64,000 nucleotides of DNA, from NCBI GenBank assembly GCA_025963715.1, contig JAOQAG010000024.1, positions 1,155 through 65,154 on the forward strand. Direction: 5' to 3'. Source of the DNA: Bacteroidota bacterium (GTDB lineage: Bacteria; Bacteroidota; Bacteroidia; 2-12-FULL-35-15). Below are positions 4,059 to 59,995 of this stretch, one piece after another (the stretch's first letter is position 1; each line of letters begins with the position of its first letter). A model generated the notes under the pieces. It did no database searches. It saw only the letters and a program-made list of their open reading frames with translations, and was not told the DNA's origin. Position numbers and translations under genes: made by a program.

Positions 4059-4232
4059 TTACACAGATGAGTAAATCGCAACGCGATTTTTAAGTAATGA
4101 ATAATTTTTATTTATTTTTAATCGGTGAATCTGTGGCAAAATTCCTACAGCGCTCTGGCATAAAAAATCGCGGTTCAGAAATTCCAATTTAGCAGGCGCG
4201 AGTGTCTCACTCGTGCCTGCATAAGATTATAA

Positions 4233-6745: not shown

Positions 6746-6792
6746 ACCTCACCCCTTCATCCCCTCTCCACAGGGAGAGGGGGCGATGCCCC
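6746..6792. repeat. REP-like palindromic element, family A (core cccctctccacaGGgagagggg)
   Basis: Near-identical copies at about 11551-11599, 22441-22487 and 35278-35323. Confidence 0.8.
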
Positions 6793-11550: not shown

Positions 11551-11599
11551 CGCCTCGCCCCCTCTCTTGTGGAGAGGGGATGAAGGGGTGAGGTCTGCC
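11551..11599. repeat. REP-like element, family A (inverted orientation)
   Basis: cgcctcgccccctctcttgtggagaggggatgaaggggtgaggtctgcc. It abuts the tex stop codon. Confidence 0.8.
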
Positions 11600-13863: not shown

Positions 13864-14021
13864 GTATTTTAATTTTTTTAATATCACAAATATAGCCAAT
13901 AGAGAATGGTAGAACTATTAATATTTTCAACACTTTTAACACAGAGGGCACAGAGGTTTTAGAGCTTCACGGAGAAGAGTTTTTATATAAAAAAATATTA
14001 ATAAAAACTACACTAAGATTA

Positions 14022-14170
14022 ACACACCCCTAACCCCTCTCAAGAGGGGAATGCATCCTGCAAGCATTTGGAATATATTATTATTTTGTAATTTTCTTAA
14101 AAACTATATTTTACAATTTCAGAAGAATGATTCAGTTCCCCTCTTGAGAGGGGTTAGGGGTGTGTTCTGC
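14022..14170. repeat. MITE-like unit: inverted copies of cccctcttgagaggggttaggggtgtg (family A') flanking an ~85-bp AT-rich core
   Basis: Arms at 14022-14058 and 14144-14170. A single further copy sits at 30977-31012. Confidence 0.65.
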
Positions 14171-14202
14171 ATATAGCATAAGCACTGCATCTGCGCACAG
14201 CA

Positions 14203-14240
14203 AAACTTTGAACTTTTGAACTTTAAACTTTGAACTTTTT
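14203..14240. repeat. short tandem aactttgaactttaaactttgaac element (family E)
   Basis: Copies at 30819-30853, 57757-57800 and 57937-57980. Confidence 0.7.
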
Positions 14241-18814: not shown

Positions 18815-18999
18815 TATTTTGTACAACGAATAGCGAATTTTTTCGAATAACGAATCTGTGTACCTACTAAATACCAATTTGTACTAATGTACCAATCTGT
18901 GTTTTTCAAAGTTTACCATTCGTTCTATTCATTAAGTATATAAGTTTGTTACTTTATTATTACAAGCTTTTTTAAGCGTATTGATTCGTAATTCGTTTT
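18815..18999. repeat. intergenic repeat block inside the korA-korB pair: family F (cgaataacgaat) at both ends, family G (ctactaaataccaatctgtactaatataccaatctgtgt) centrally
   Basis: Family G recurs at 59561-59610 and partly at 38066-38090. Family F recurs at 22403-22432 and 52651-52740. Confidence 0.7.
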
Positions 19000-20859
19000 T
19001 TATTCGTTATTCGATGATAACATTTCCACGATCTTATTCTTAATCTCTACTGAAGAAAACGGCAGTCCCTGCACCTTATTCAAGCCTTTAGCATCCACTA
19101 AATATTTATCACGGATGATTTTAATTAATTGTCCGCTGTTGATTTCCGGCATCAATACTTTATCAAAGCCTTTGATTAATTCACCTAAATTTTTCGGCAG
19201 CGGGTTCAGGTATTTCACATGCGCATGCGATACATCGTACCCTTCCGCGATGGCATCCTTCACAGCTGTTTTGATAGATCCGTATGTTCCGCCCCAGCCG
19301 ATCACCAATAACTTTCCTTTTGCATTTCCATTATCAATGGTTTGTAACGGCACGTACTCTGCAATCCTATCCACTTTTGCCTGGCGTAATTTTACCATCA
19401 GCTCGTGGTTTTCCGGATCGTAGGAAATATTCCCGGTCTCATTTTCTTTTTCAATCCCTCCTACTCTGTGCTCCAATCCTTTTGTTCCCGGGATGGCCCA
19501 TTCGCGCGCCAGTTTTTCGTTGCGTTTATACGGAAGGAATTTTTCTCCTTCTTTCAGATTATTTTTTGCAAAAGCCACTTTTATTTCAGGAAGATCTGCA
19601 GCAGCCGGGAATTTCCAGGGCTCAGCTCCGTTGGCAATGTATCCGTCACTTAAAAAGAAAACCGGCGTCATAAATTCAATTGCCAAACGGCAGGCTTCAA
19701 ACGCGGTATCAAAACAATCGCTGGGCGAATATGCTGCAATCACCGGCACAGGCGCTTCTCCGTTTCTTCCGTAGATCGCCTGCATCAGATCCGCTTGTTC
19801 TGTTTTTGTTGGCAAACCGGTACTTGGCCCGCCACGCTGCACATTCACGATTACCAGCGGCAATTCCAGCATCAGCGCCAAACCGATGGCTTCGCCTTTG
19901 AGCGCAATACCGGGGCCGGACGATGCCGTAATTCCCAATGATCCGCCAAAAGACGCACCTATAGCGGAAGTAACAGCTGCGATCTCATCTTCGGCCTGGA
20001 ATGTTTTTACGCCGAAATTTTTATGTTTTGATAATTCATGTAAAATATCCGAAGCCGGTGTGATCGGGTATGTCCCGTAAAATAAGGTTAAACCGGCTTT
20101 TTGCGTTGCCGCGATCAATCCCAGTGCTGCTGCCTGGTTACCCATGATGCTGCGGTAGGTTCCTTTGGAAACCGGCGCGGGTTTTACTTCGTAGCGGTTC
20201 ATCGGTGTTTCCACCGTATCGCCGTAGTTGTAACCGGCTTTTAATACTTTAATATTGGCATCGATCAGGTCCGGACGCTTTTTAAACTGTTCTTTCAAAA
20301 ACTCGATCGAGTTATCGAGGGAACGGTTGTACATCCAGTAAATGTAACCGAGCACAAACATATTTTTGGAACGGTCCATTTCCTTTGTTCCCAGGCCGGA
20401 ACCTTCCAGTGCCGTGCGCGTGATCCTGGTCACATCGATCTCGTATACCTTGTATTTATCAAGTGAGCTGTCCTTTAAGGGATTTACGCCCTCGGGATAT
20501 TTTGCCAGCTTTAGATTTTTTGCATCAAATCCATCGGTATTGGCGATGATGATGCCGCCCGGTTTTAATTGTTTTAAATTCGCTTTCAAAGCAGCGCCGT
20601 TCATTACCACCAGCACATCGGCTGCATCACCGGCAGTAAAGATCTCTTCACTTCCAAAATGCAGCTGAAACCCGGATACACCGGCAATGGTGCCTTGCGG
20701 AGCGCGGATCTCGGCCGGAAAGTTAGGGAATGTGCTGATATCGTTTCCATACAATGCCGCCGTAGTGGTAAACTGCGAACCGGTTAACTGGATCCCGTCG
20801 CCGGAATCACCGGCAAAAAGTATGACCACATTGTTTTTAATTTCTGTTGTTGAGCTCAT
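19000..20859 (-). CDS. korA: 2-oxoglutarate/2-oxoacid:ferredoxin oxidoreductase, alpha subunit
   Basis: 619 aa alpha/gamma fusion typical of KorA ([13 protein letters not shown]...). Confidence 0.9.
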
Positions 20860-22400: not shown

Positions 22401-22440
22401 TACGAATAACGAATAAATAACGAAAAACGAATCTGTGTGT

Positions 22441-22487
22441 AGACCTCTCCCCTTCATCCCCTCTCCACAAGAGAGGGGGCAACACCC
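22441..22487. repeat. REP-like element, family A
   Basis: agacctctccccttcatcccctctccacaagagagggggcaacaccc. Confidence 0.8.
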
Positions 22488-22529
22488 GAACTGTGTGTGC
22501 TAAAACCGAAGTGAAATCATAAATTTTTA

Positions 22530-24211: not shown

Positions 24212-24336
24212 TTGGTGTTTAACCGCAGAGAACGCTAAGGAGGCGCAGAGTTCGCGGAGGCTGGAATTAAAAATTAATTGAAATCGGAAAGTTTATACCA
24301 GGCTTATAACTATTTAATTGAAAAAACCTTAATTTG

Positions 24337-24431
24337 TGCGTCATTGCGAGGGCTTTTCGCCCGAAGCAATCTCATACCAGAATATAAACTAGAGTGAGAT
24401 TGCTTCGGGCGAAAAGCCCTCGCAATGACGT
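24337..24431. repeat. long near-perfect inverted repeat, family C (gcgtcattgcgagggcttttcgcccgaagcaatctca ... tgagattgcttcgggcgaaaagccctcgcaatgacg)
   Basis: ~37-bp arms with a ~20-bp loop. A second, near-identical copy lies at 36299-36393. A related element (ctccgctcgaaatgacag) lies at 54819-54907. Confidence 0.85.
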
Positions 24432-24487
24432 TCTTAAAATAATTTATTTTCATGGTGCAAAGTTTCGGATACTCACTAAAAATTAAA

Positions 24488-29837: not shown

Positions 29838-30815
29838 ATGGAAGAAAATATTTTTCAAAACAGGGTTGATCTAAGCCGTTTACAGCAAGCCGTAAGCAGC
29901 ATTAAAAACGAAGTAAGCAAAATAATTGTCGGGCAGGATCAAATGATCGACTTATTAATTGCCGCTATTTTAGCCGATGGACATGTGCTGATAGAAGGTG
30001 TTCCGGGAGTTGCAAAAACGCTGACAGCAAAATTACTTTCCAAAACATTGTCTGTTGATTTTTCGCGGATCCAGTTCACACCCGACCTGATGCCTTCGGA
30101 TATTATCGGAACAAATGTGTACAATCTTAAAATATCGGATTTTGAATTTAAGCAAGGTCCTTTATTCTCCAATGTAATTCTGATCGATGAAATTAACCGT
30201 GCTCCTGCAAAAACACAATCCGCTTTGTTTGAAGCAATGGAGGAACGCCAGATCACCGTGGAAGGAAAAACCCACATACTTGCCGCTCCGTTTATTGTGC
30301 TTGCCACTCAAAATCCTATTGAGCAGGAAGGCACGTACCGTTTGCCGGAAGCGCAGCTCGACCGTTTTTTGTTTAAAATAGAAGTGGGTTATCCTTCACT
30401 GGAAGATGAAACAAAGATCATTTCGGATTTTCATCTCCGCAAGGATAAAAACGATATTACCATCATTAATGGTGTAATGAATACCGAAGATATAAAAAGC
30501 TACCGGGCGACTGTGAGCGAGATCCATGTGGAGGATCACCTGATCGGATACATTGCAAAAATAGTGAATCAAACACGTAACAATTCCTCTTTATACTTAG
30601 GCGCTTCGCCGCGTGCATCACTGGCAATACTTACCAGTGCAAAAGCAATTGCTGCTATGCGCGGACGCGATTTTGTAACACCGGATGATATTAAATTTGT
30701 TGCGACCGCCGTTTTAAAACACCGGATCATACTTACTCCTGAAAAAGAAATGGAAGGGATTACAACGAGTGAAGTGGTAAAACAGATCATCGAAAAGATA
30801 GAAGTGCCGAGATAA
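29838..30815 (+). CDS. MoxR-family AAA+ ATPase
   Basis: IVGQDQMIDLLIAAILADGHVLIEGVPGVAKT (Walker A) and LIDEINRAPAKTQSALFEAMEERQITV. Confidence 0.9.
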   Translation: MEENIFQNRVDLSRLQQAVSSIKNEVSKIIVGQDQMIDLLIAAILADGHVLIEGVPGVAKTLTAKLLSKTLSVDFSRIQFTPDLMPSDIIGTNVYNLKISDFEFKQGPLFSNVILIDEINRAPAKTQSALFEAMEERQITVEGKTHILAAPFIVLATQNPIEQEGTYRLPEAQLDRFLFKIEVGYPSLEDETKIISDFHLRKDKNDITIINGVMNTEDIKSYRATVSEIHVEDHLIGYIAKIVNQTRNNSSLYLGASPRASLAILTSAKAIAAMRGRDFVTPDDIKFVATAVLKHRIILTPEKEMEGITTSEVVKQIIEKIEVPR

Positions 30816-30818
30816 GGA

Positions 30819-31012
30819 AGTTCAAAGTTTAAAGTTCAAAAGTTCAAAGTTTGCTGTACGGATAACAAACAGGAACGAAACTGCGAATCTGTGCGTGAGG
30901 GAACCCGGATCAGACGGATGCTGCAGATCTTAACGGATTAAAAAACAGGATTACTGTTATAAAATTTGCAGGATCAAATTCCCCTCTTGAGAGGGGTTAG
31001 GGGTGTGTAATA
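30819..31012. repeat. repeat insertion block between MoxR and DUF58: family E (agttcaaagtttaaagttcaaa), family I (gataacaaacaggaacgaaac...cgaatctgtg), family A' (cccctcttgagaggggttaggggtgtg)
   Basis: Three different interspersed repeat families packed into an otherwise tight operon gap. Confidence 0.7.
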
Positions 31013-35277: not shown

Positions 35278-35323
35278 CACCTCTCCCCTTCATCCCCTCT
35301 CCACAGGAGAAGGGGGCGAGGCG
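35278..35323. repeat. REP-like element, family A
   Basis: cacctctccccttcatcccctctccacaggagaagggggcgaggcg, directly after the prfB stop. Confidence 0.8.
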
Positions 35324-35784: not shown

Positions 35785-36298
35785 AAACTATAGATTTTTT
35801 CCACCACATAAGGCACAAAGAAACACATAAGGCGAAGCGTGTTGCTGTGTTTGTAATGCTCCACTTGTTGTGCAGTTGTTGGGCGCTCATTATTTTTGCA
35901 TGGTTGGCCCAATGGGTTTTATCGGGTTTAAAGCTAAACAAATGTTTATATTGTTTTGAGGGGAACAAACAAACGGTTAAAATTATTTGACGAACGGTTA
36001 ACTACATTCCAAAATAGTAACCAATATTTAATCCGGCATTCCACAAATAACCAGTAACAGGCGCATCTATTATTTTTAAAACGCCGTACCTGAATGTCGG
36101 TTCAATTCGCAGATCATTCCTGCTGTTTAATCACTACTTTCCTTTGATCCATTTATTAAGCCTTTCAGCGAGTATGCCGCAATTAGGATGTTCTACCGAG
36201 CGGCAGGGGCACATTTGCAACAAAAAATAGTATCCGCCAGAGCTTAAAATAAAATGAGTATCCGGAACTTTGCACCATAAAAAGAATTTACTTTAAAA

Positions 36299-36393
36299 AC
36301 GTCATTGCGAGGGCTTTTCGCCCGAAGCAATCTCATTGTAGTTTTATACCCTGGTGTGAGATTGCTTCGGGCGAAAAGCCCTCGCAATGACGC
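36299..36393. repeat. long inverted repeat, family C (second copy)
   Basis: Arms near-identical to 24337-24431. The loop differs. Confidence 0.85.
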
Positions 36394-36463
36394 ATTGATT
36401 AAAACTTTTTCCAATAAAATAACTATGGCCTGGTATAAACTTTCCGACTTCATTTAAAATAAA

Positions 36464-41353: not shown

Positions 41354-41365
41354 ATTGTTAAGTAT

Positions 41366-42319
41366 TTACCTTAACAACTGAATAAAACCTTTTTTTGTTT
41401 GTTTGCTTTTTTGTTCTGATATATAATAATACACACCATTGTTACAATTTATACCTGCGCTCGTTTTACCATCCCAACCTATATTATAACTTCCTTCAAA
41501 TACTTTTAATCCCCAGCGATCATAGATCGTGTATTTATCGCCTTCTTCGATACCAGTGATAAAAAAAAGATCATTTATACCATCGTTGTTGGGTGTAAAA
41601 ACGTTTGAGATTGGTAAGGCATCTTCCAGATCAATGATACTTACATCCTCAACATAATAATAAGAATTCGGAGTAGACGATGGTTGTATTTCAAGCGTAT
41701 CATTTTCTAATGTTGAATCTGAATAATTGCCAATAGTAATGTACTGCTCGTTTCCATTTGCTTTAAAATCCCCGCTAATCAATACCCATCCCGTTGTATC
41801 TGTTATAAAACTACCTGCTGGGTTTTTAATTTGTGGAGAATAATAGCTAAAAGGATATGTATCTGTACGACTGATCGCAGTATTAGAAAGGTAAGCCCCG
41901 ATATTTGAAACAGCATATTGGCTGTAATCCGATAAAGAAACATAAAACGAAACCTGATAAGTATGACCTGATAACATGGGCTGAGATAATTTACTCTGTA
42001 TGTATTCCATCCATATTCCGGAGGACAAATCCATTGCCAAGAAACCGCAATAGCCGTTCCCTGAACGCGCGTATTCATAGCCAATACCATTGGAAGGAAC
42101 ACCCACCAAACCGGTATTACATACATTCAAATAATCGGATGTTGCACCAGTTGGTGTATCCCATCCCAAACAATGAGTAATCTGGTGATCCCAAGGTACC
42201 GAAGGACCAATAGGACAAGTATCATAAATTTCAAAATCTCCATTGTAAACAAGGTTAGTTTGGGCGTTGCAAAACACCGAAGCAAAAACAAAAAATAATA
42301 TGTAAAAGGGTTTATTCAA
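41366..42319 (-). CDS. secreted protein with T9SS type-B (gliding-motility-associated CHU_C-like) C-terminal sorting domain, paralogue 1
   Basis: TTG start. Signal peptide MNKPFYILFFVFASVFCNAQ. C-terminal NVFTPNNDGINDLFFITG...YTIYDRWGLKVFEG...GWDGK...GVYYYI is the type-B CTD signature. Confidence 0.8.
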   Translation of the reverse strand: MNKPFYILFFVFASVFCNAQTNLVYNGDFEIYDTCPIGPSVPWDHQITHCLGWDTPTGATSDYLNVCNTGLVGVPSNGIGYEYARSGNGYCGFLAMDLSSGIWMEYIQSKLSQPMLSGHTYQVSFYVSLSDYSQYAVSNIGAYLSNTAISRTDTYPFSYYSPQIKNPAGSFITDTTGWVLISGDFKANGNEQYITIGNYSDSTLENDTLEIQPSSTPNSYYYVEDVSIIDLEDALPISNVFTPNNDGINDLFFITGIEEGDKYTIYDRWGLKVFEGSYNIGWDGKTSAGINCNNGVYYYISEQKSKQTKKGFIQLLR

Positions 42320-42570
42320 TTATTAAGATTGATTACGTTTTTATCACAAGCATTTTTTAACAGCCATTGTGACTTGTCTGTATCAAATTTAAGGCTTTTA
42401 TCTCATAAATATTTCTCCTTTCTTCTTTAAATAAAAATCTAATAGAAACTGAAAATTAGAACATCTGCATTACATTTCAATGGACACTTTTGATGCTCTG
42501 GGACATTTTCCGGTTTCCAACATGCTCAACAAAACCTAACACTGTAATTTTACTGCAATTATAAGTGTTG

Positions 42571-42593: not shown

Positions 42594-42858
42594 TCAATAT
42601 AATTAGGGTTTTCTTTAGCTCTGTGGTATTTTATTGGAATTTGAACATGCTCAATAAAACAGGGCACATTGTTTTTCAAAGATGAGGAGAGAAAAAGAGG
42701 AAGTCAATCCGTAAAAACACGGTATTTTACCCGTAAAAAAACGGGTATGGGTTTTATTTTAATAATAGAAAAAAAAATGAGAATGTTGTTACCTATCCGT
42801 AAGTATAAGGCGAGCTAAGGACCTACTAGTGCAGGTAATTTTCGAAATACAGGTTGTT

Positions 42859-43836
42859 TTACCTTAACAATTGAATAAAACCTTTTTTTGTTTGTTTACC
42901 TTTTTGTTCTGCAATGTAATAATACACACCGTTGCTACAATCTAACCCTGCATTGGTTTTGCCATCCCAGCCTACATTATAACGACCTTCAAATACTTTG
43001 ACACCCCAACGATCATAAATTATATATTTGTCGATTTCTTCTAAACCTGTGATTAGAAAGAGATCATTTTCCCCATCACTGTTTGGTGTAAAAACATTTG
43101 CAATAGGCTTCTGATCTGTTATATCAAAGGTACTTCCACCATCCACAAAATAATAAGCATTTGGTACATCAGTATTGTGTAAAACAGTAAGCGTATCGGT
43201 CGTTATTGAATCCTTAAAATTACCAATAGTAATATATTCTTCTCCTCCCAATGCGCTATAATCACCCGAAATTAATGTCCATGATGTCGTATCGTTTAAA
43301 AACACGCCGACAGGGCTTGTAATTTGCGGCACATAGTTTAGTGGTGCAGGGCTACAACTATTACCAACAGGAGTATTCGAGATATAAAAACCAAGTTGTC
43401 CAACAGCAATATTTGAATTATTACCTAAGGAAACATAAAATCCAATACGGTAGATATGCCCTGCAACAAGAGGACTGATGAATTTCCCCTGTATGTACTC
43501 CCACCAAAAACTTCCATTATAACATCCGCCACCACTTAAAGTGTAAGCATAAAAACCACAATAGCCGTTTCCGGAATAGGGCATTTGATAACCAAATCCA
43601 TTGGCTGGAATTGCGACGGTTGATGTATTGCAAGTATTCAAATAATCTGATGTTGCATAGGTCGGTGCTTTCCATCCTAAACAATGCTCTATTTCATAAG
43701 GAATAGAAAAGGGGCTGGATGGGCCAACAGGGCAAACGTCATACATCTCAAAATCCCCATTGTAAACAAGGTTCGTTTGAGCCTTGCAGAACACTGAAGC
43801 AAAAACAAAAAATAATATGTAAAAGGTTTTATTCAA
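42859..43836 (-). CDS. secreted protein with T9SS type-B C-terminal sorting domain, paralogue 2
   Basis: N-terminus and C-terminus are near-identical to paralogue 1. The central ~200 aa are about 50-60% identical. Confidence 0.8.
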   Translation of the reverse strand: MNKTFYILFFVFASVFCKAQTNLVYNGDFEMYDVCPVGPSSPFSIPYEIEHCLGWKAPTYATSDYLNTCNTSTVAIPANGFGYQMPYSGNGYCGFYAYTLSGGGCYNGSFWWEYIQGKFISPLVAGHIYRIGFYVSLGNNSNIAVGQLGFYISNTPVGNSCSPAPLNYVPQITSPVGVFLNDTTSWTLISGDYSALGGEEYITIGNFKDSITTDTLTVLHNTDVPNAYYFVDGGSTFDITDQKPIANVFTPNSDGENDLFLITGLEEIDKYIIYDRWGVKVFEGRYNVGWDGKTNAGLDCSNGVYYYIAEQKGKQTKKGFIQLLR

Positions 43837-44087
43837 TTGTTAAGATTGATTACGTTTTTATCACAAGCATTTTTTAACAGCCATTGTGACTTGCCTGTAT
43901 CAAATTTAAGGCTTTTATCTCATAAATATTTCTCCTTTCTTCTTTAAATAAAAATCTAATAGAAATTGAAAATTAGAACATCTGCATTACATTTCAATGG
44001 ACACTTTTTGATCTCTGGGACATTTTCCGGTTTCCAACATGCTCAACAAAACCTAACACTGTAATTTTACTACAATTATAAGTGTTG

Positions 44088-45340: not shown

Positions 45341-48172
45341 ATGAAAATTACTACTCCACGAAGCAAGCTTCTTGCTTTTGTATTTTTATTAGTGTCCGTT
45401 TCATCAGTATTTGCACAGGTAAGTTATAATGCAGCTGCCATTTACAGCATCCGCAAAGTAGCTCCCAACTACGGCGGTAAGCCCATACAAGTGCGCCGCA
45501 CCTGCGATAACGCCGTAAAAGATATTCCATTTACTTCCTGCGGCGACCTCGATACCGTTGCACTCAAAACATTTGTGGTTGCAGCAAATCCTTTAAGCTC
45601 CATCACTGCCGCATCTGCCGCAGCATACAGCCTGCGCAGGTTAAGCTGCAGCTATGCTGGCAATGCTATACAAGTGAGACGCAGCAGCGACAATGCAACA
45701 CAAAACATTGGCTTTAACGCCTGGGGCGATTTGGATACCGCTGCCCTGCGCACCTTTGTAGGAGCCAACAGCGCCTTTGTTACCATCTGGTACGATCAAA
45801 GCGGGAACGCCCGCAATGCCACACAAGCTGTAACCACGCTGCAACCCCGGATCATGAATGCCGGTGTGATAGAGCGGCAGGGCGGAATGCCCGCCATCCG
45901 CTGGCTTGGTATTGGCTACGCATTAGCTACTGCCTCCTTTACAGCTTACGGAAGTGCTGCCTGCTATAACGCGGTGGCAAAAGTAAACGCCAATACTACT
46001 ACCGGTTACAATACCACCGTAAATAAATGTACGGCCAACTTTCCGGCGCCCTTGGATCTTTACAACGCACAGCTGGTAATCGGATCCGGACCCAGCTATA
46101 CTTTTTTTAGCATGTCGCAAACATTTGATGTTACACAAAGCTATGCCATCTGGACCTACCAGGCTTCCTCCGGCGGAAGCGTAAATGCTTATAAAAACAG
46201 CACCAATATATGCACCGGCAGTGTTGTTTATTATGGCGATATCGGAACCCCGCTGGTATTAGGCAGCAGGGCCGATATACTTACCGGGCTGGATGGCTGG
46301 ATGTCGGAAGTGATCACCTTTGCCGTATTACCAAGTGCTACAGAGCGCGCCTTTGTGGAATGGACACAGGGACAATATTACAACCTCAGCGGCGCGCCTG
46401 CATTAGGAACAATCCCTCCGGGCGCACCCAGCGGCTATATTGCCACCTGGTACGATCAAAGCGGAAACTCCGTAAATGCAGTACAGGCTACAATCGCCAA
46501 CCAGCCCAGGATCATCAACGTGGGCGTGATAGAGAAAGACGGAACCAAAACAGCCCTGCACTTTGGCGGTGCATCGCAAAACCTTACCGTTGCCACACCT
46601 GTTACCTCCTACCCTGCTTCCATCAGTGTGTTAGGCAATACCGCAGGCGCATCCACCAACGGTGCATTTGTAAAACTGGGCGCAACCTCCGGAAGCGGCG
46701 GCATTGGCATCGGCATTGGTAACTCTGGCGGAAACTTTGATGCTGCGGGTACATCACTAATCGGCTTAAAGGAATTCCAGGTATGGTGCGCTTCCAGCCC
46801 CAATGTAAATTTTCCTTCCAGCCCGTTTACAGTAACACAGATCCAGCAAACTGCTGTTGCAGGCAGTGGCATGACGGCTTTCCTGAACGGAACAAACGTA
46901 CCTTTGGCTTCGGCAGGCAACGTTACCGATGGCAGCACTCTCAGCGGCAATCTCTTTATTGGCGGGTATAACAACGGCACCAGCCGTTTTCCGGTGATGA
47001 AACAATCGGAAGTGATCGTATACGGAAGCGCGCTTTCCGTTACACGCCGCACTTTACAGGAAACCAACCAGGCAGCGTATTATAGCCTTACCATCAGCAA
47101 TAATAAATACACACCACCGGCTAGCGGCTACCGTTTTTATGTAACCGGTGTGGGCCGCGAAACTGTCAGCGACAGCGTAGCAGCAACCCGCAGCTCTGCC
47201 GGAATGGGCTTTATTGTGGGACAAAGCGGAACCGACTTTTTAAAAGACAACGGCGATTATATTACCGCAGGTATGGATTGCCCGGTACCAAGCAGCTCCA
47301 CCTCCAACCTTCCGGCAACCGTAACTCAGCGCTGGACCAATGATTGGTATATCCATAAAACGGATGTGAGCTCCAACAACGGCACCATCACTATTTATTT
47401 TGATTACAGCGAATACGGCGTATGGGGATTACCGGGCATTGCGGCCAATTATGTATTGCTGGATCGCAGTACACCTTCCGGAACGTTTGCTATTGTGGCC
47501 GGAACAACGCCAAGCGTATCGGGCAACCGGGTTTTGTTTTCGGTAGATGCCGCCAACATTACCACCGACAGGTATTACACTATTGGGACAAAAAACATTG
47601 CATTAAGTCCATTGCCAATAGAGTTGCTGGAGTTTAAAGCAGAAGCCTGCGATAAAGATGTCTGTCTCAACTGGAGCACTGCCACCGAAACCAACAACGA
47701 TTTTTTTACCATAGAAAAAACAGCGAACGGTACTGATTTTGAAACCGTGACCACTGTGGATGGCGCCGGTAACAGCACACAACGCCGCAACTATACTGCA
47801 ATGGATCATGCACCATACGAAGGAAAATCCTATTACCGTTTAAAACAAACGGATTTTAACGGGCATTATACTTACTCCGGTTTGGAAGATGTAGCGTTTA
47901 CCGGAACAACAGATTTTTCGTTTGAAGTATTCCCCAATCCAAATGCAGGTGAAAACATTCAGCTGGCCATTAACACTTCCAAAGGCGAAGAGATCCTGGT
48001 GGTGGTATATGATGCAACAGGCAGGGAATCGTACTCGAAAGTAATTATTACGGATGATAATTCCGACAATGTGTTTGCGATGGATCCTTCCGGAAAATTA
48101 AAACCGGGCATTTACTTTATTACCGCCACTTCCAAACAGGCAATCTACAGCAAGCGGATGATCGTGCAGTAA
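45341..48172 (+). CDS. large secreted repeat protein with T9SS type-A C-terminal sorting domain
   Basis: Signal peptide MKITTPRSKLLAFVFLLVSVSSVFAQ. Internal repeats include YSIRKVAPNYGGKPIQVRR / YSLRRLSCSYAGNAIQVRR and WYDQSGN..NA.QA....QPRI.N.GVIE. C-terminal FEVFPNPNAGENIQL...GIYFITA. Confidence 0.7.
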   Translation: MKITTPRSKLLAFVFLLVSVSSVFAQVSYNAAAIYSIRKVAPNYGGKPIQVRRTCDNAVKDIPFTSCGDLDTVALKTFVVAANPLSSITAASAAAYSLRRLSCSYAGNAIQVRRSSDNATQNIGFNAWGDLDTAALRTFVGANSAFVTIWYDQSGNARNATQAVTTLQPRIMNAGVIERQGGMPAIRWLGIGYALATASFTAYGSAACYNAVAKVNANTTTGYNTTVNKCTANFPAPLDLYNAQLVIGSGPSYTFFSMSQTFDVTQSYAIWTYQASSGGSVNAYKNSTNICTGSVVYYGDIGTPLVLGSRADILTGLDGWMSEVITFAVLPSATERAFVEWTQGQYYNLSGAPALGTIPPGAPSGYIATWYDQSGNSVNAVQATIANQPRIINVGVIEKDGTKTALHFGGASQNLTVATPVTSYPASISVLGNTAGASTNGAFVKLGATSGSGGIGIGIGNSGGNFDAAGTSLIGLKEFQVWCASSPNVNFPSSPFTVTQIQQTAVAGSGMTAFLNGTNVPLASAGNVTDGSTLSGNLFIGGYNNGTSRFPVMKQSEVIVYGSALSVTRRTLQETNQAAYYSLTISNNKYTPPASGYRFYVTGVGRETVSDSVAATRSSAGMGFIVGQSGTDFLKDNGDYITAGMDCPVPSSSTSNLPATVTQRWTNDWYIHKTDVSSNNGTITIYFDYSEYGVWGLPGIAANYVLLDRSTPSGTFAIVAGTTPSVSGNRVLFSVDAANITTDRYYTIGTKNIALSPLPIELLEFKAEACDKDVCLNWSTATETNNDFFTIEKTANGTDFETVTTVDGAGNSTQRRNYTAMDHAPYEGKSYYRLKQTDFNGHYTYSGLEDVAFTGTTDFSFEVFPNPNAGENIQLAINTSKGEEILVVVYDATGRESYSKVIITDDNSDNVFAMDPSGKLKPGIYFITATSKQAIYSKRMIVQ

Positions 48173-48293
48173 AACATAACAGCAATTTTTTTTCATAAAA
48201 ACAATGTTTTTAACGCCTGGATTTTTAACAAAATTCCGGGCAAAAAAAGCACTCTTTCCTAAACAAATAAATCTTAAATTTGGGGTTCAAAAT

Positions 48294-48368
48294 TAACACA
48301 TCTAACATCTAACATCTAACATCTAACATCTAACATCTAACATCTAACATCTAACATCTAACATCTAA
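48294..48368. repeat. heptanucleotide microsatellite (CATCTAA)x~10, ending ~25 bp upstream of the fumC start codon
   Basis: Perfect tandem copies read directly. Confidence 0.9.
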
Positions 48369-48392
48369 TTACTAAATACTCAAGACTAAAAA

Positions 48393-49790
48393 ATGGAATA
48401 CAGAATTGAAACCGACACGATGGGCGAGGTAAAAGTACCTGCTGATAAATACTGGGGAGCACAAACAGAACGCTCACGCAACAACTTTAAAATAGGACCG
48501 GAAGCGTCCATGCCGAAAGAGATCATTTATGCTTTCGGTTACCTGAAAAAAGCGGCCGCAATGGCAAACAATGAATTGGGCGTACTGGATGCAGCAAAAA
48601 AAGATCTGATCGCAAAAGCGTGTGACGAAATTATTGCAGGCAAACTGGATGATCAATTCCCATTGGTGATCTGGCAAACAGGATCGGGAACACAATCCAA
48701 CATGAATGCAAATGAAGTGATCGCCTACCGCGCACACGTAATGAACGGCGGAAAATTAAGCGACGAGAAAAAAGTATTGCACCCGAACGATGATGTAAAT
48801 AAATCACAATCATCCAATGATACCTACCCCACTGCCATGCACATTGCGGCTTACAAACAGGTGGTGGACATTACCATCCCGGGAATGGAAAAATTAAGAG
48901 ATACACTGGTAAAAAAATCAAACGATTTTAAAAGCATCGTAAAAACCGGCCGTACGCATTTTATGGATGCCACACCGCTTACACTGGGGCAGGAATTCAG
49001 CGGTTACGCACAACAGGTTACCAACAGTATCCGCGCCATTAAAAACGCGCTGGAAATGGTAAGCGAGCTGGCACTGGGCGGAACAGCCGTAGGAACCGGA
49101 TTGAATACACCAAAAGGATACGATGTACTGGTTGCTAAAAAAATTGCAGAGCTTACCGGCTTGCCATTTGTAACGGCACCCAATAAATTTGAAGCGCTTG
49201 CTGCGCACGATGCGATGGTGGAATTATCCGGCGCCTTAAAACGCTCGGCAGTGGCCCTGATGAAAGTAGCCAACGATGTGCGCATGTTGAGCTCCGGCCC
49301 ACGCTGCGGGATCGGCGAAATTATTATTCCGGATAACGAACCGGGATCATCCATTATGCCGGGCAAAGTAAACCCTACACAGCCGGAAGCGCTTACCATG
49401 GTATGCGCCCAGGTAATGGGGAATGATGTGGCGGTTTCTATCGGCGGATCAAACGGGCATTTTGAGCTGAACGTGTTCAAGCCATTGATCGCAGCAAACG
49501 TATTGCAATCCGCACGTTTGATCGGTGATGCATGCGTATCGTTCAACGATAATTGCGCAATTGGTATTGAGCCGAACCTTCCGGTATTGAAACAACACCT
49601 CGAAAATTCGCTGATGCTGGTAACTGCATTAAACACACACATCGGTTACGAAAAAGCTGCGAAGATTGCGAAAACGGCACACAAAGGAAATAAAACCCTG
49701 CGTGAAGCGGCAATTGAGCTGGGCTATGTAACCAACGAACAATTTGACGAGTGGGTAAAACCGGAAGATATGACCGGCTCCATGAAATAA
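48393..49790 (+). CDS. fumC: fumarate hydratase, class II
   Basis: [13 protein letters not shown] signature. 465 aa. Confidence 0.95.
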
Positions 49791-52650: not shown

Positions 52651-52740
52651 CTACGAATAACGAATTTAAACGAATAACGAATACTCACATAGTAGCATGT
52701 ACACAGATTCGTTATTCGTTTAAATTCGTTATTCGTTGTA
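52651..52740. repeat. ~30-bp-arm inverted repeat of family F (cgaataacgaatttaaacgaataacgaata ... tattcgttattcgtttaaattcgttattcg)
   Basis: Read directly. It lies between manC-like and the aminotransferase gene. Confidence 0.8.
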
Positions 52741-57526: not shown

Positions 57527-57980
57527 TACCACTAAGGCACTAAGAACACTGAGCCCCCGCCCATTAACCACAAAAGAAAACAAAAGAAACAAAAGACGAA
57601 GCTAATATTTTACCACTAAGGCACTGAGGGCACTAAGGTTATTTCCCCCAGCCCCCGTCAACCACATAAGGCACAAAGAAACACATAAGGCGGGGCTTGT
57701 TAACCTGTGGTGTAGTGTATGATGTGTTTTAATAAATAATTAAATCGTCATCCGTACACAGCAAACTTTGAACTTTTTAACTTTAAACTTTGAACTTCTT
57801 TTGCCTTCGTGGCTTCGTGGTAAAAAAACCGCTCCGCAGGAACACACAGCATCCTTTTTATTTTGAATTTCCTCCCTTTTTCTTTCCCTTTCTTAGTGCC
57901 TTAGTGGTAAAAAATGATCGCGCAAGCGATCCACACAGCAAACTTTGAACTTTCCAACTTTAAACTTTGAACTTTTTATT
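57527..57980. repeat. dense repeat field in the feoA / mlaE divergent region: family D word-variants (accactaaggcactaag, accacataaggcacaaag) and family E (aactttgaactttaaactttgaac) x2
   Basis: Read directly. Confidence 0.75.
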
Positions 57981-59514: not shown

Positions 59515-59622
59515 AGTACAGATAACGCCCGCCTGAACGATTCGGGCAGGAACAGGAACGAAACTACTAAATACCAATCTGTACTAATATACCAATCTGT
59601 GTGGTTGCTTCCGGCAAGCTGT

Positions 59623-59995
59623 GTAATAGAAACGCAGATTTTATAGGATCGGTTAGGATTAAAAAGATAGCTGTGTCTATCAGCAGGCGCGAGTGTCCCA
59701 CTCGTGCTTTTTTATTTTATGGCATCCTGCCATTGTACAAAAGCTTTAAGTTTGTGTAAATTGGAACCCAGATTTTATAGGATCGGTTAGGATTAAAAAA
59801 GATAGCTGTGTCTATCAGCAGGCGCGAGTGTCCCACTCGTGCTTTTTTATTTTATGGCGTCCCGCCATTGTACAAAAGCTTTAAGTTTGTGTGAATTGGA
59901 ACGCAGATTTTATATGATCGGTTAGGATTAAAAAAGATAGCTGTGTGTGCTATTATCAGCTAAGATTAAAAAGATGGCTGTATTTTCTACTTAAT
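59623..59995 (+). repeat. tandem array of ~135-bp units (2 full plus 1 degenerate). Each unit has a TAAGTTTG -7-like box and a terminator hairpin (gcaggcgcgagtg-tccc-actcgtgc + ttttttatttt). Candidate tandem sRNA genes.
   Basis: Units at about 59623-59762, 59763-59897 and 59898-59995. A lone copy of the hairpin core lies at 4195-4225. Confidence 0.6.

Follow-up and report, generated by a model that had tools for sequence, protein, structure and literature searches.

What is a perfect tandem array of a seven-nucleotide unit doing directly in front of the gene for a TCA-cycle enzyme, and should the gain or loss of units be expected to change the expression of that gene? The array, ten copies of CATCTAA, is located upstream of fumC in a 64,000-nt stretch of a Bacteroidota MAG, hereafter the window (Table 1). 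Our analysis points to a modest answer: the array is probably a heptanucleotide microsatellite produced by slippage within the fumC 5' leader, where it would be tolerated and would affect expression at most in a graded manner, via leader length. The first-pass annotation had marked positions 48294-48392, a span that joins the array to the 24-nt proximal leader, and its observation of ten perfect tandem heptamers shortly before the fumarase start is borne out, the fumC ATG (48393) lying 24 nt past the end of the array.

Table 1. Features of the fumC upstream region (coordinates are positions in the window)
Feature	Coordinates	Strand	Basis
Secreted protein with T9SS C-terminal sorting domain	45341..48172	+	TIGR04183 Por_Secre_tail, residues 874-954
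Predicted sigma-A -7 box TAAATTTG	48275-48282	+	match to TAnnTTTG / TAHHTTTG
Predicted fumC 5' untranslated leader, ~106 nt	48287..48392	+	start inferred from -7 box
Perfect (CATCTAA)x10 tandem array	48299-48368	+	direct sequence reading and TRF
Proximal leader, degenerate heptamer-like units TTACTAA ATACTCAA GACTAAAA A	48369..48392	+	TRF
fumC, class II fumarate hydratase, 465 aa	48393..49790	+	TIGR00979, 766 bits against a cutoff of 664.75

Tandem Repeats Finder (TRF) returned the CATCTAA array as the top-scoring short-period array of the window, called as (ACATCTA)x10.1 at 48298-48368 (period 7, 100% matches, no indels, score 142). A 21-nt probe composed of three CATCTAA units had nine matches at the array versus none in 100 dinucleotide-preserving shuffles. 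The fumarase encoded downstream is 100% identical to MCW3084549.1 (Bacteroidota MAG, 202,237-bp contig), and searches for the exact protein led just to the source MAG and to a single Logan contig, which ends inside the repeat. The latter contig (L001; SRR13312996, other assembler) starts within the array and continues into the same right flank, thereby confirming at least four CATCTAA copies, although it may share reads with the source assembly; the copy count of exactly ten is that given by the source MAG. The contig start also shows that k-mer assemblies break within the array. Among the matches listed for FumC in genome and metagenome collections, none exceeded 89% identity save one partial match at 96%, and neither the exact T9SS protein nor the exact TPR protein of the window had a match in the protein collection searched.

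The sigma-A factor of Bacteroidota does not use the sigma-70 consensus (PMC6847099); its promoters are characterised by a -7 box, TAnnTTTG, refined to TAHHTTTG (PMC6847099; PMC9723704). We identified a candidate for such a box, TAAATTTG, 16 nt upstream of the array. It is the sole match to TAnnTTTG, with at most one mismatch, in the 220 nt that separate fumC from the T9SS gene (48173-48392), and no similar box was found, at the same tolerance, inside or downstream of the array. The box is embedded in a block, CAAATAAAyCTTAAATTTGGG, which is kept upstream of fumC in eight related loci encoding FumC proteins 96-98% identical to that of the window (L169, L162-L167 and L022). Similar boxes are found 25-50 nt before fumC in Pedobacter loci, and the other window genes that possess a -7 box mostly carry it 25-64 nt ahead of the ATG. 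In Flavobacterium johnsoniae the G of the -7 box occupies position -5 with respect to the transcription start (PMC6847099), from which we infer that fumC transcription would start at about 48287, so that the array would span about +13 to +82 of a predicted leader of ~106 nt. Since the array is located downstream of the conserved -7 box, slippage cannot alter the -33/-7 spacing. The proposal that the repeat is transcribed as part of a repetitive 5' untranslated region is favoured by this position, the start itself being predicted from the box. Alternatively, fumC may be served by transcripts reading through from the upstream T9SS gene or by a promoter that does not depend on sigma-A. A scan of 47900-48700 for sigma-70 promoters and intrinsic terminators yielded nothing above shuffles, its consensus being unsuited to Bacteroidota.

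The origin of the array is best approached through a sister species, which was reached via a neighbouring 230-aa hypothetical protein whose 90% cluster contains members from the window and the sister species only. The sister is represented by locus L169 of GCA_900291705.1; a Logan copy of this locus, L170, is identical. The two fumC genes share 97.8% amino acid and 89% nucleotide identity. The left flank (CTTTCCTAA to AATTAACACA, the -7 box included) is identical at ~49 of 50 nt and the right flank (TTACTAAATACTCAAGACTA up to the ATG) at 23 of 24 nt; conservation of the flanks hence exceeds that of fumC. In the intervening interval, the sister species possesses 57 nt of degenerate heptamers (AGCTAA CATCTAT AAACTAA TACCTAT AGCATTTAA CACTTAA CATCTAA ATACTAA), whereas the same interval in the window consists of 69-71 nt occupied by the perfect array, giving leaders of 94 and 106 nt, respectively. 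The presence of a degenerate tract between near-identical flanks argues that the perfect array is a recent expansion of one older unit. Similarly, 71 nt of array without a single substitution, despite the 11% nucleotide divergence of fumC between the two species, argues for recent or ongoing slippage and homogenisation. Judging from the two leaders, that of the common ancestor would already have been a ~95-nt tract of NNNCTAA units.

More distant relatives do not possess the tract. Seven of the eight loci mentioned above (L162-L167 and L022, FumC 96% identical) retain the -7 box and have an unrelated 47-nt leader devoid of repeats. Across 167 Bacteroidota fumC upstream regions, a period-7 signal is detected only in the window, in its sister and in one metagenome contig (L096), in which the heptamer array is located upstream of the likely promoter box. 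This restricted distribution argues that the tract is lineage-specific and does not represent a conserved fumC regulator. The sister locus differs from the window also in gene content: an additional minus-strand CarboxypepD_reg-like gene is found between the intact T9SS gene and fumC, which indicates a local rearrangement that left the fumC promoter and leader intact. We also noted, ~190 nt upstream of the sister fumC (L169 8170-8245), a ~50-nt stretch that looks like a leftover 3' end of the gene with the T9SS sorting domain (...KRMIVQ). The T9SS gene of the window, which begins with an ATG followed by a signal-peptide-like N-terminus and is 86% identical to its orthologue in the sister species, is not part of the repeat feature.

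The leader of the window consists of A 47%, C 25%, G 1% and T 27%. Its G content of 1% compares with 3% for the sister leader and 11% for that of the outgroup, and the G-free run at 48286-48383 (98 nt) is the longest of the window. The CATCTAA unit itself is without G; consequently, the RNA made from it is predicted to be unable to fold and contains no start codon. Indeed, neither ATG nor GTG nor TTG is found anywhere in the fumC leader. When the leader was folded together with the first 48 nt of the coding sequence (152 nt), the minimum free energy (MFE) was -4.9 kcal/mol (z = +1.63), and 190 of 200 shuffles folded equally well or better. In models with 0-20 units, neither the MFE (-10.3 kcal/mol throughout) nor the mean pairing probability at -20 to +20 of the AUG (0.22-0.24) responded to the number of units. 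The proximal leader is itself recognised by TRF as a degenerate period-7 repeat (48365-48390, 3.7 copies, 78% matches) and has A at each of the five positions (-5 to -1) preceding the AUG. At ~106 nt, the predicted leader is 3-4 times as long as the median 5' untranslated region in studied Bacteroidota (24-32 nt; PMC9723704). Translation in this phylum is initiated without Shine-Dalgarno pairing, and in Flavobacterium it is favoured by unstructured, A-rich upstream regions (PMC6847099); in such a phylum, a G-free, unfolded tract would be expected to be at least harmless.

Several candidate functions of the repeat were considered and rejected. A small open reading frame or leader peptide within the array is incompatible with the lack of start codons, and on the reverse strand the repeat, read as (TTAGATG)n, runs into a stop within ~6 codons. 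An RNA structure or structural switch formed by the repeat was likewise discarded, the leader being less structured than its shuffles and its folding being independent of copy number. Finally, searches of Rfam revealed no credible family, either in the whole window at the gathering threshold or in 48100-48500 at E-values of up to 10.

Taken together, the history of the tract might be envisaged as follows. An older, degenerate tract of NNNCTAA units would have been present in the ancestral leader, in which a single unit, CATCTAA, would recently have expanded and overwritten its neighbours. With no predicted structure, no start codon and a location outside of both the promoter and the coding frame, the resulting array would act as an inert spacer. 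From first principles, a perfect array of ten units should be prone to slippage in 7-nt steps, with units being added and removed at an elevated rate; a change in leader length would be the only direct consequence. Any effect on fumarase expression would hence be graded and probably small, rather than ON/OFF, and the array nearly neutral.

How unusual is such an array? In 1.56 Mb of Bacteroidota fumC loci searched for perfect repeats of 4-11-nt units, at least five copies were reached at period 7 only; at the other periods, four perfect copies were never exceeded. Four arrays of at least five copies were found, that of the window included, and two of the three others are located just past stop codons. 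In Maribacter sp. R86514 (L052 9808-9940), (AGCTGTT)19 lies between two convergent genes, just past a stop codon and ahead of a terminator hairpin, and in a Gelidibacter MAG (L055 6849-6939), (TTTAACT)13 follows the fumC stop codon and precedes a terminator hairpin. The third is the metagenome contig already mentioned (L096 1389-1451), which carries (GAGGGCA)5 and three further copies upstream of fumC. The CATCTAA unit itself is repeated 4-5 times in five unrelated IMG/VR viral contigs (L172-L176), where it arose independently. In three of these contigs the array is located just before a hairpin and T-run, and in one it lies 10 nt before an ATG; in L174 the array is preceded by (CATCTAG)6.

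An excess of 7-nt repeats has been noted in bacteria (PMC4692102), and heptanucleotides have been described as the most abundant units of long simple sequence repeats (LSSRs) in many prokaryotes (Mrazek 2007, as cited in PMC4679880). The fumC array is a member of this known class, that of prokaryotic heptamer simple repeats and leader-located tandem repeats. It shares with LSSRs of the 5-11-nt class the perfect head-to-tail arrangement of a 7-nt unit, a length beyond that expected by chance, an intergenic and lineage-specific occurrence, and a sequence between the flanks that differs between close relatives, the window and its sister; we see no real difference from the class.

Within the window, however, the CATCTAA unit is solitary. 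A probe of three units detected no match outside the fumC locus at up to three mismatches, no chain of at least three phased CTAA motifs was found on either strand of the 64 kb besides the fumC leader, and the lag-7 autocorrelation of intergenic DNA without the fumC locus (0.295) exceeds that at neighbouring lags (~0.29) only marginally. Families of tandem heptanucleotides known as STRR, dispersed in many copies per genome, occupy intergenic regions of cyanobacteria. The fumC array resembles them in being an intergenic heptamer repeat of an environmental bacterium, yet the same heptamer is not found at many loci within the 64 kb, unlike the units of those dispersed families.

A parallel is provided by the TAACTGA heptamer repeats that MacGregor (2015, PMC4679880) described in front of start codons in Beggiatoaceae, Cyanobacteria and five Bacteroidetes, and for which a regulatory role has been proposed. 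Like the CATCTAA array, these are direct, stop-codon-containing repeats in forward orientation, located a few to tens of nucleotides before the start codon; housekeeping genes are among those preceded by them, some Bacteroidetes contain long arrays, and the spacers of close relatives are shorter and repeat-free. Conversely, the unit is a different one (CATCTAA reads TAACATC in the TAACTGA rotation), and the TAACTGA repeats form tens to hundreds of sets per genome as opposed to one CATCTAA/CTAA tract in 64 kb. In the hmw1A and hmw2A genes of Haemophilus influenzae, 9-28 copies of a 7-bp repeat are found between the promoter and the coding region (PMC2424069, PMC10127715), the same placement as that predicted for the fumC array, and higher numbers of repeats result in less mRNA (PMC2424069), an effect that is graded and not ON/OFF. 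However, the hmw genes encode adhesins of a host-adapted pathogen, for which both the variation and its effect have been demonstrated, whereas the fumC array precedes the gene for a TCA-cycle enzyme in an environmental bacterium, where variation and effect would be putative. In Moraxella catarrhalis, an AGAT repeat is found in the 5' untranslated region of uspA2 (Attia and Hansen 2006, as cited in PMC4679880). According to that account, the uspA2 repeat, like the fumC array in its predicted leader, lies in a transcribed leader whose length is set by the number of copies; it differs in the tetranucleotide unit, in belonging to a surface-protein gene and in having a measured expression optimum at 18 copies.

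Could the array nevertheless be a regulatory device? The first-pass annotation saw in it the architecture of a contingency locus, in which each 7-bp step would alter promoter-element spacing and helical phase. In a wider form of this reading, the spacing or phase that changes could also be that of an activator site relative to the promoter, and fumC would thereby be switched ON or OFF. In favour of such a switch, a perfect ten-unit array lies close to a gene start, and one weak sigma-70-type match (9/12) overlaps the array, at a frequency not above that of shuffles. Against it, the sigma-A factor of Bacteroidota disregards the sigma-70 consensus (PMC6847099), and the array neither separates nor overlaps the core promoter elements, the -7 box being positioned wholly upstream of it and kept in relatives without any repeat. 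Furthermore, the sister species has a degenerate, non-slippable tract at the same site, and fumC, a housekeeping gene, does not belong to the surface, host-interaction or restriction-modification functions of that class; we therefore regard the switch as highly improbable. We give hardly any credence to a mis-assembled low-complexity join or to a 3' tail of the T9SS gene, the latter having been suggested in the form of a degenerate tail of a T9SS island. It is true that the source is a MAG, that short-read assemblers can mis-size tandem repeats and that the Logan contig breaks in the array, and heptamer arrays elsewhere often follow stop codons. Against an artefact, the unique sequence on either side of the array is collinear with the sister genome, in which a homologous tract is in place, and the second assembly of the identical fumC contains the same repeat and right flank. 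As for the tail, the fumC box stands between the array and the T9SS stop, 126 nt upstream, and in the sister species the promoter and heptamer leader remain attached to fumC despite the inserted gene; the array is therefore no tail of the T9SS region.

A selected role of the leader deserves more consideration, although we hold it to be rather unlikely. The NNNCTAA tract would then be a cis-element of the fumC mRNA whose copy number tunes expression across the population; it could offer tandem sites to a protein that binds single-stranded RNA (ribosomal protein S1, cold-shock or RRM-type proteins), or act as a G-less, unstructured enhancer of initiation without Shine-Dalgarno pairing. In both sister species the tract has a CTAA core, very little G (1% and 3%), a similar length (106 and 94 nt) and conserved flanks. 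A heptamer-based, G-poor leader of similar length in two species, between flanks conserved above the level of fumC, could indicate that the tract is selected and not neutral. The excess over the median leader length (PMC9723704), the benefit of unstructured, A-rich upstream regions for initiation in Flavobacterium (PMC6847099) and the demonstrated effects of the hmw repeats (PMC2424069) and, as described in PMC4679880, of the uspA2 AGAT repeats are all consistent with such a role. On the other hand, relatives with 96% identical FumC have a 47-nt leader without the tract, which argues that fumC does not need it. No phased CTAA tract is found at any other of the ~43 genes of the window and there is thus no sign of a regulon; comparable arrays in other Bacteroidota and in phages are mostly located at 3' ends; and the predicted accessibility of the AUG is independent of copy number. 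Bolder still, and in our estimation improbable, is the idea that the G-less NNNCTAA tract is a selected leader module for translation without Shine-Dalgarno pairing, an unstructured platform on which the ribosome, S1 or some other RNA-binding protein could settle, and that its slippage-prone perfect form turns fumC into a 'metabolic contingency locus'; were it true, slippage would tune TCA-cycle flux among the cells of an environmental Bacteroidota population.

The implications depend on which of these accounts holds. If the array is merely a tolerated microsatellite, as we favour, it exemplifies the preference for 7-nt units already known from slippage in bacteria, marks a site where short-read assemblies break and constitutes a potential strain-typing (VNTR) marker for an uncultured lineage. 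If, instead, copy number tuned fumarase, repeat-mediated expression variation would extend beyond pathogen surface antigens to the central metabolism of free-living Bacteroidota, and the locus would provide a natural leader-length series for the study of initiation without Shine-Dalgarno pairing.

Apart from the fumC array, the window contains several degenerate period-7 arrays and dispersed intergenic repeat modules. A ~45-nt element combining degenerate AACTTTG heptamers with a CACAGCA motif is present in four intergenic copies (14196-14240, 30812-30857 as reverse complement, 57756-57800 and 57933-57977), two of them directly past stop codons and two upstream of mlaE, 177 nt apart; one copy is kept in the sister species with point changes (L169 ~19520-19555). 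Between a manC-like and an aminotransferase gene, ACGAATA heptamers form a perfect 30-nt inverted repeat with a 24-nt loop (52653-52682 and 52707-52736), which is absent from the orthologous 76-nt spacer of the sister (L169 14423-14498). Related ACGAATA arrays adjoin stop codons at 22402-22432 and 18984-19013.

Longer modules were also noted. At 59620-59946, there are 2.4 tandem copies of a 135-bp unit (94% matches). Every unit has a GC-rich hairpin core, AGCAGGCGCGAGTGTCCCACTCGTGC, with a T-run behind it, and this core recurs 55 kb away, at 4191-4216. A ~175-nt palindromic element occurs twice, 11.8 kb apart (24313-24486 and 36244-36418), with a perfect 36-nt hairpin in each copy (24339-24430 and 36300-36392); the two copies could be MITE-like or could delimit a mobile segment. 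Further families of short, intergenic GC-rich hairpin repeats (6746-6789, 11558-11596, 22441-22499 and 35279-35322; 14021-14166 and 30978-31008), with cores such as CCCCTCTCCACA...GGGG and CCCCTCTCAAGAGGGG, compose a REP-like mosaic of modular intergenic repeats. Upstream of the T9SS gene, two adjacent minus-strand paralogues of ~317-325 aa (41365-42500 and 42858-44017) are 79-92% identical in the 300-nt blocks compared, which indicates a tandem gene duplication.
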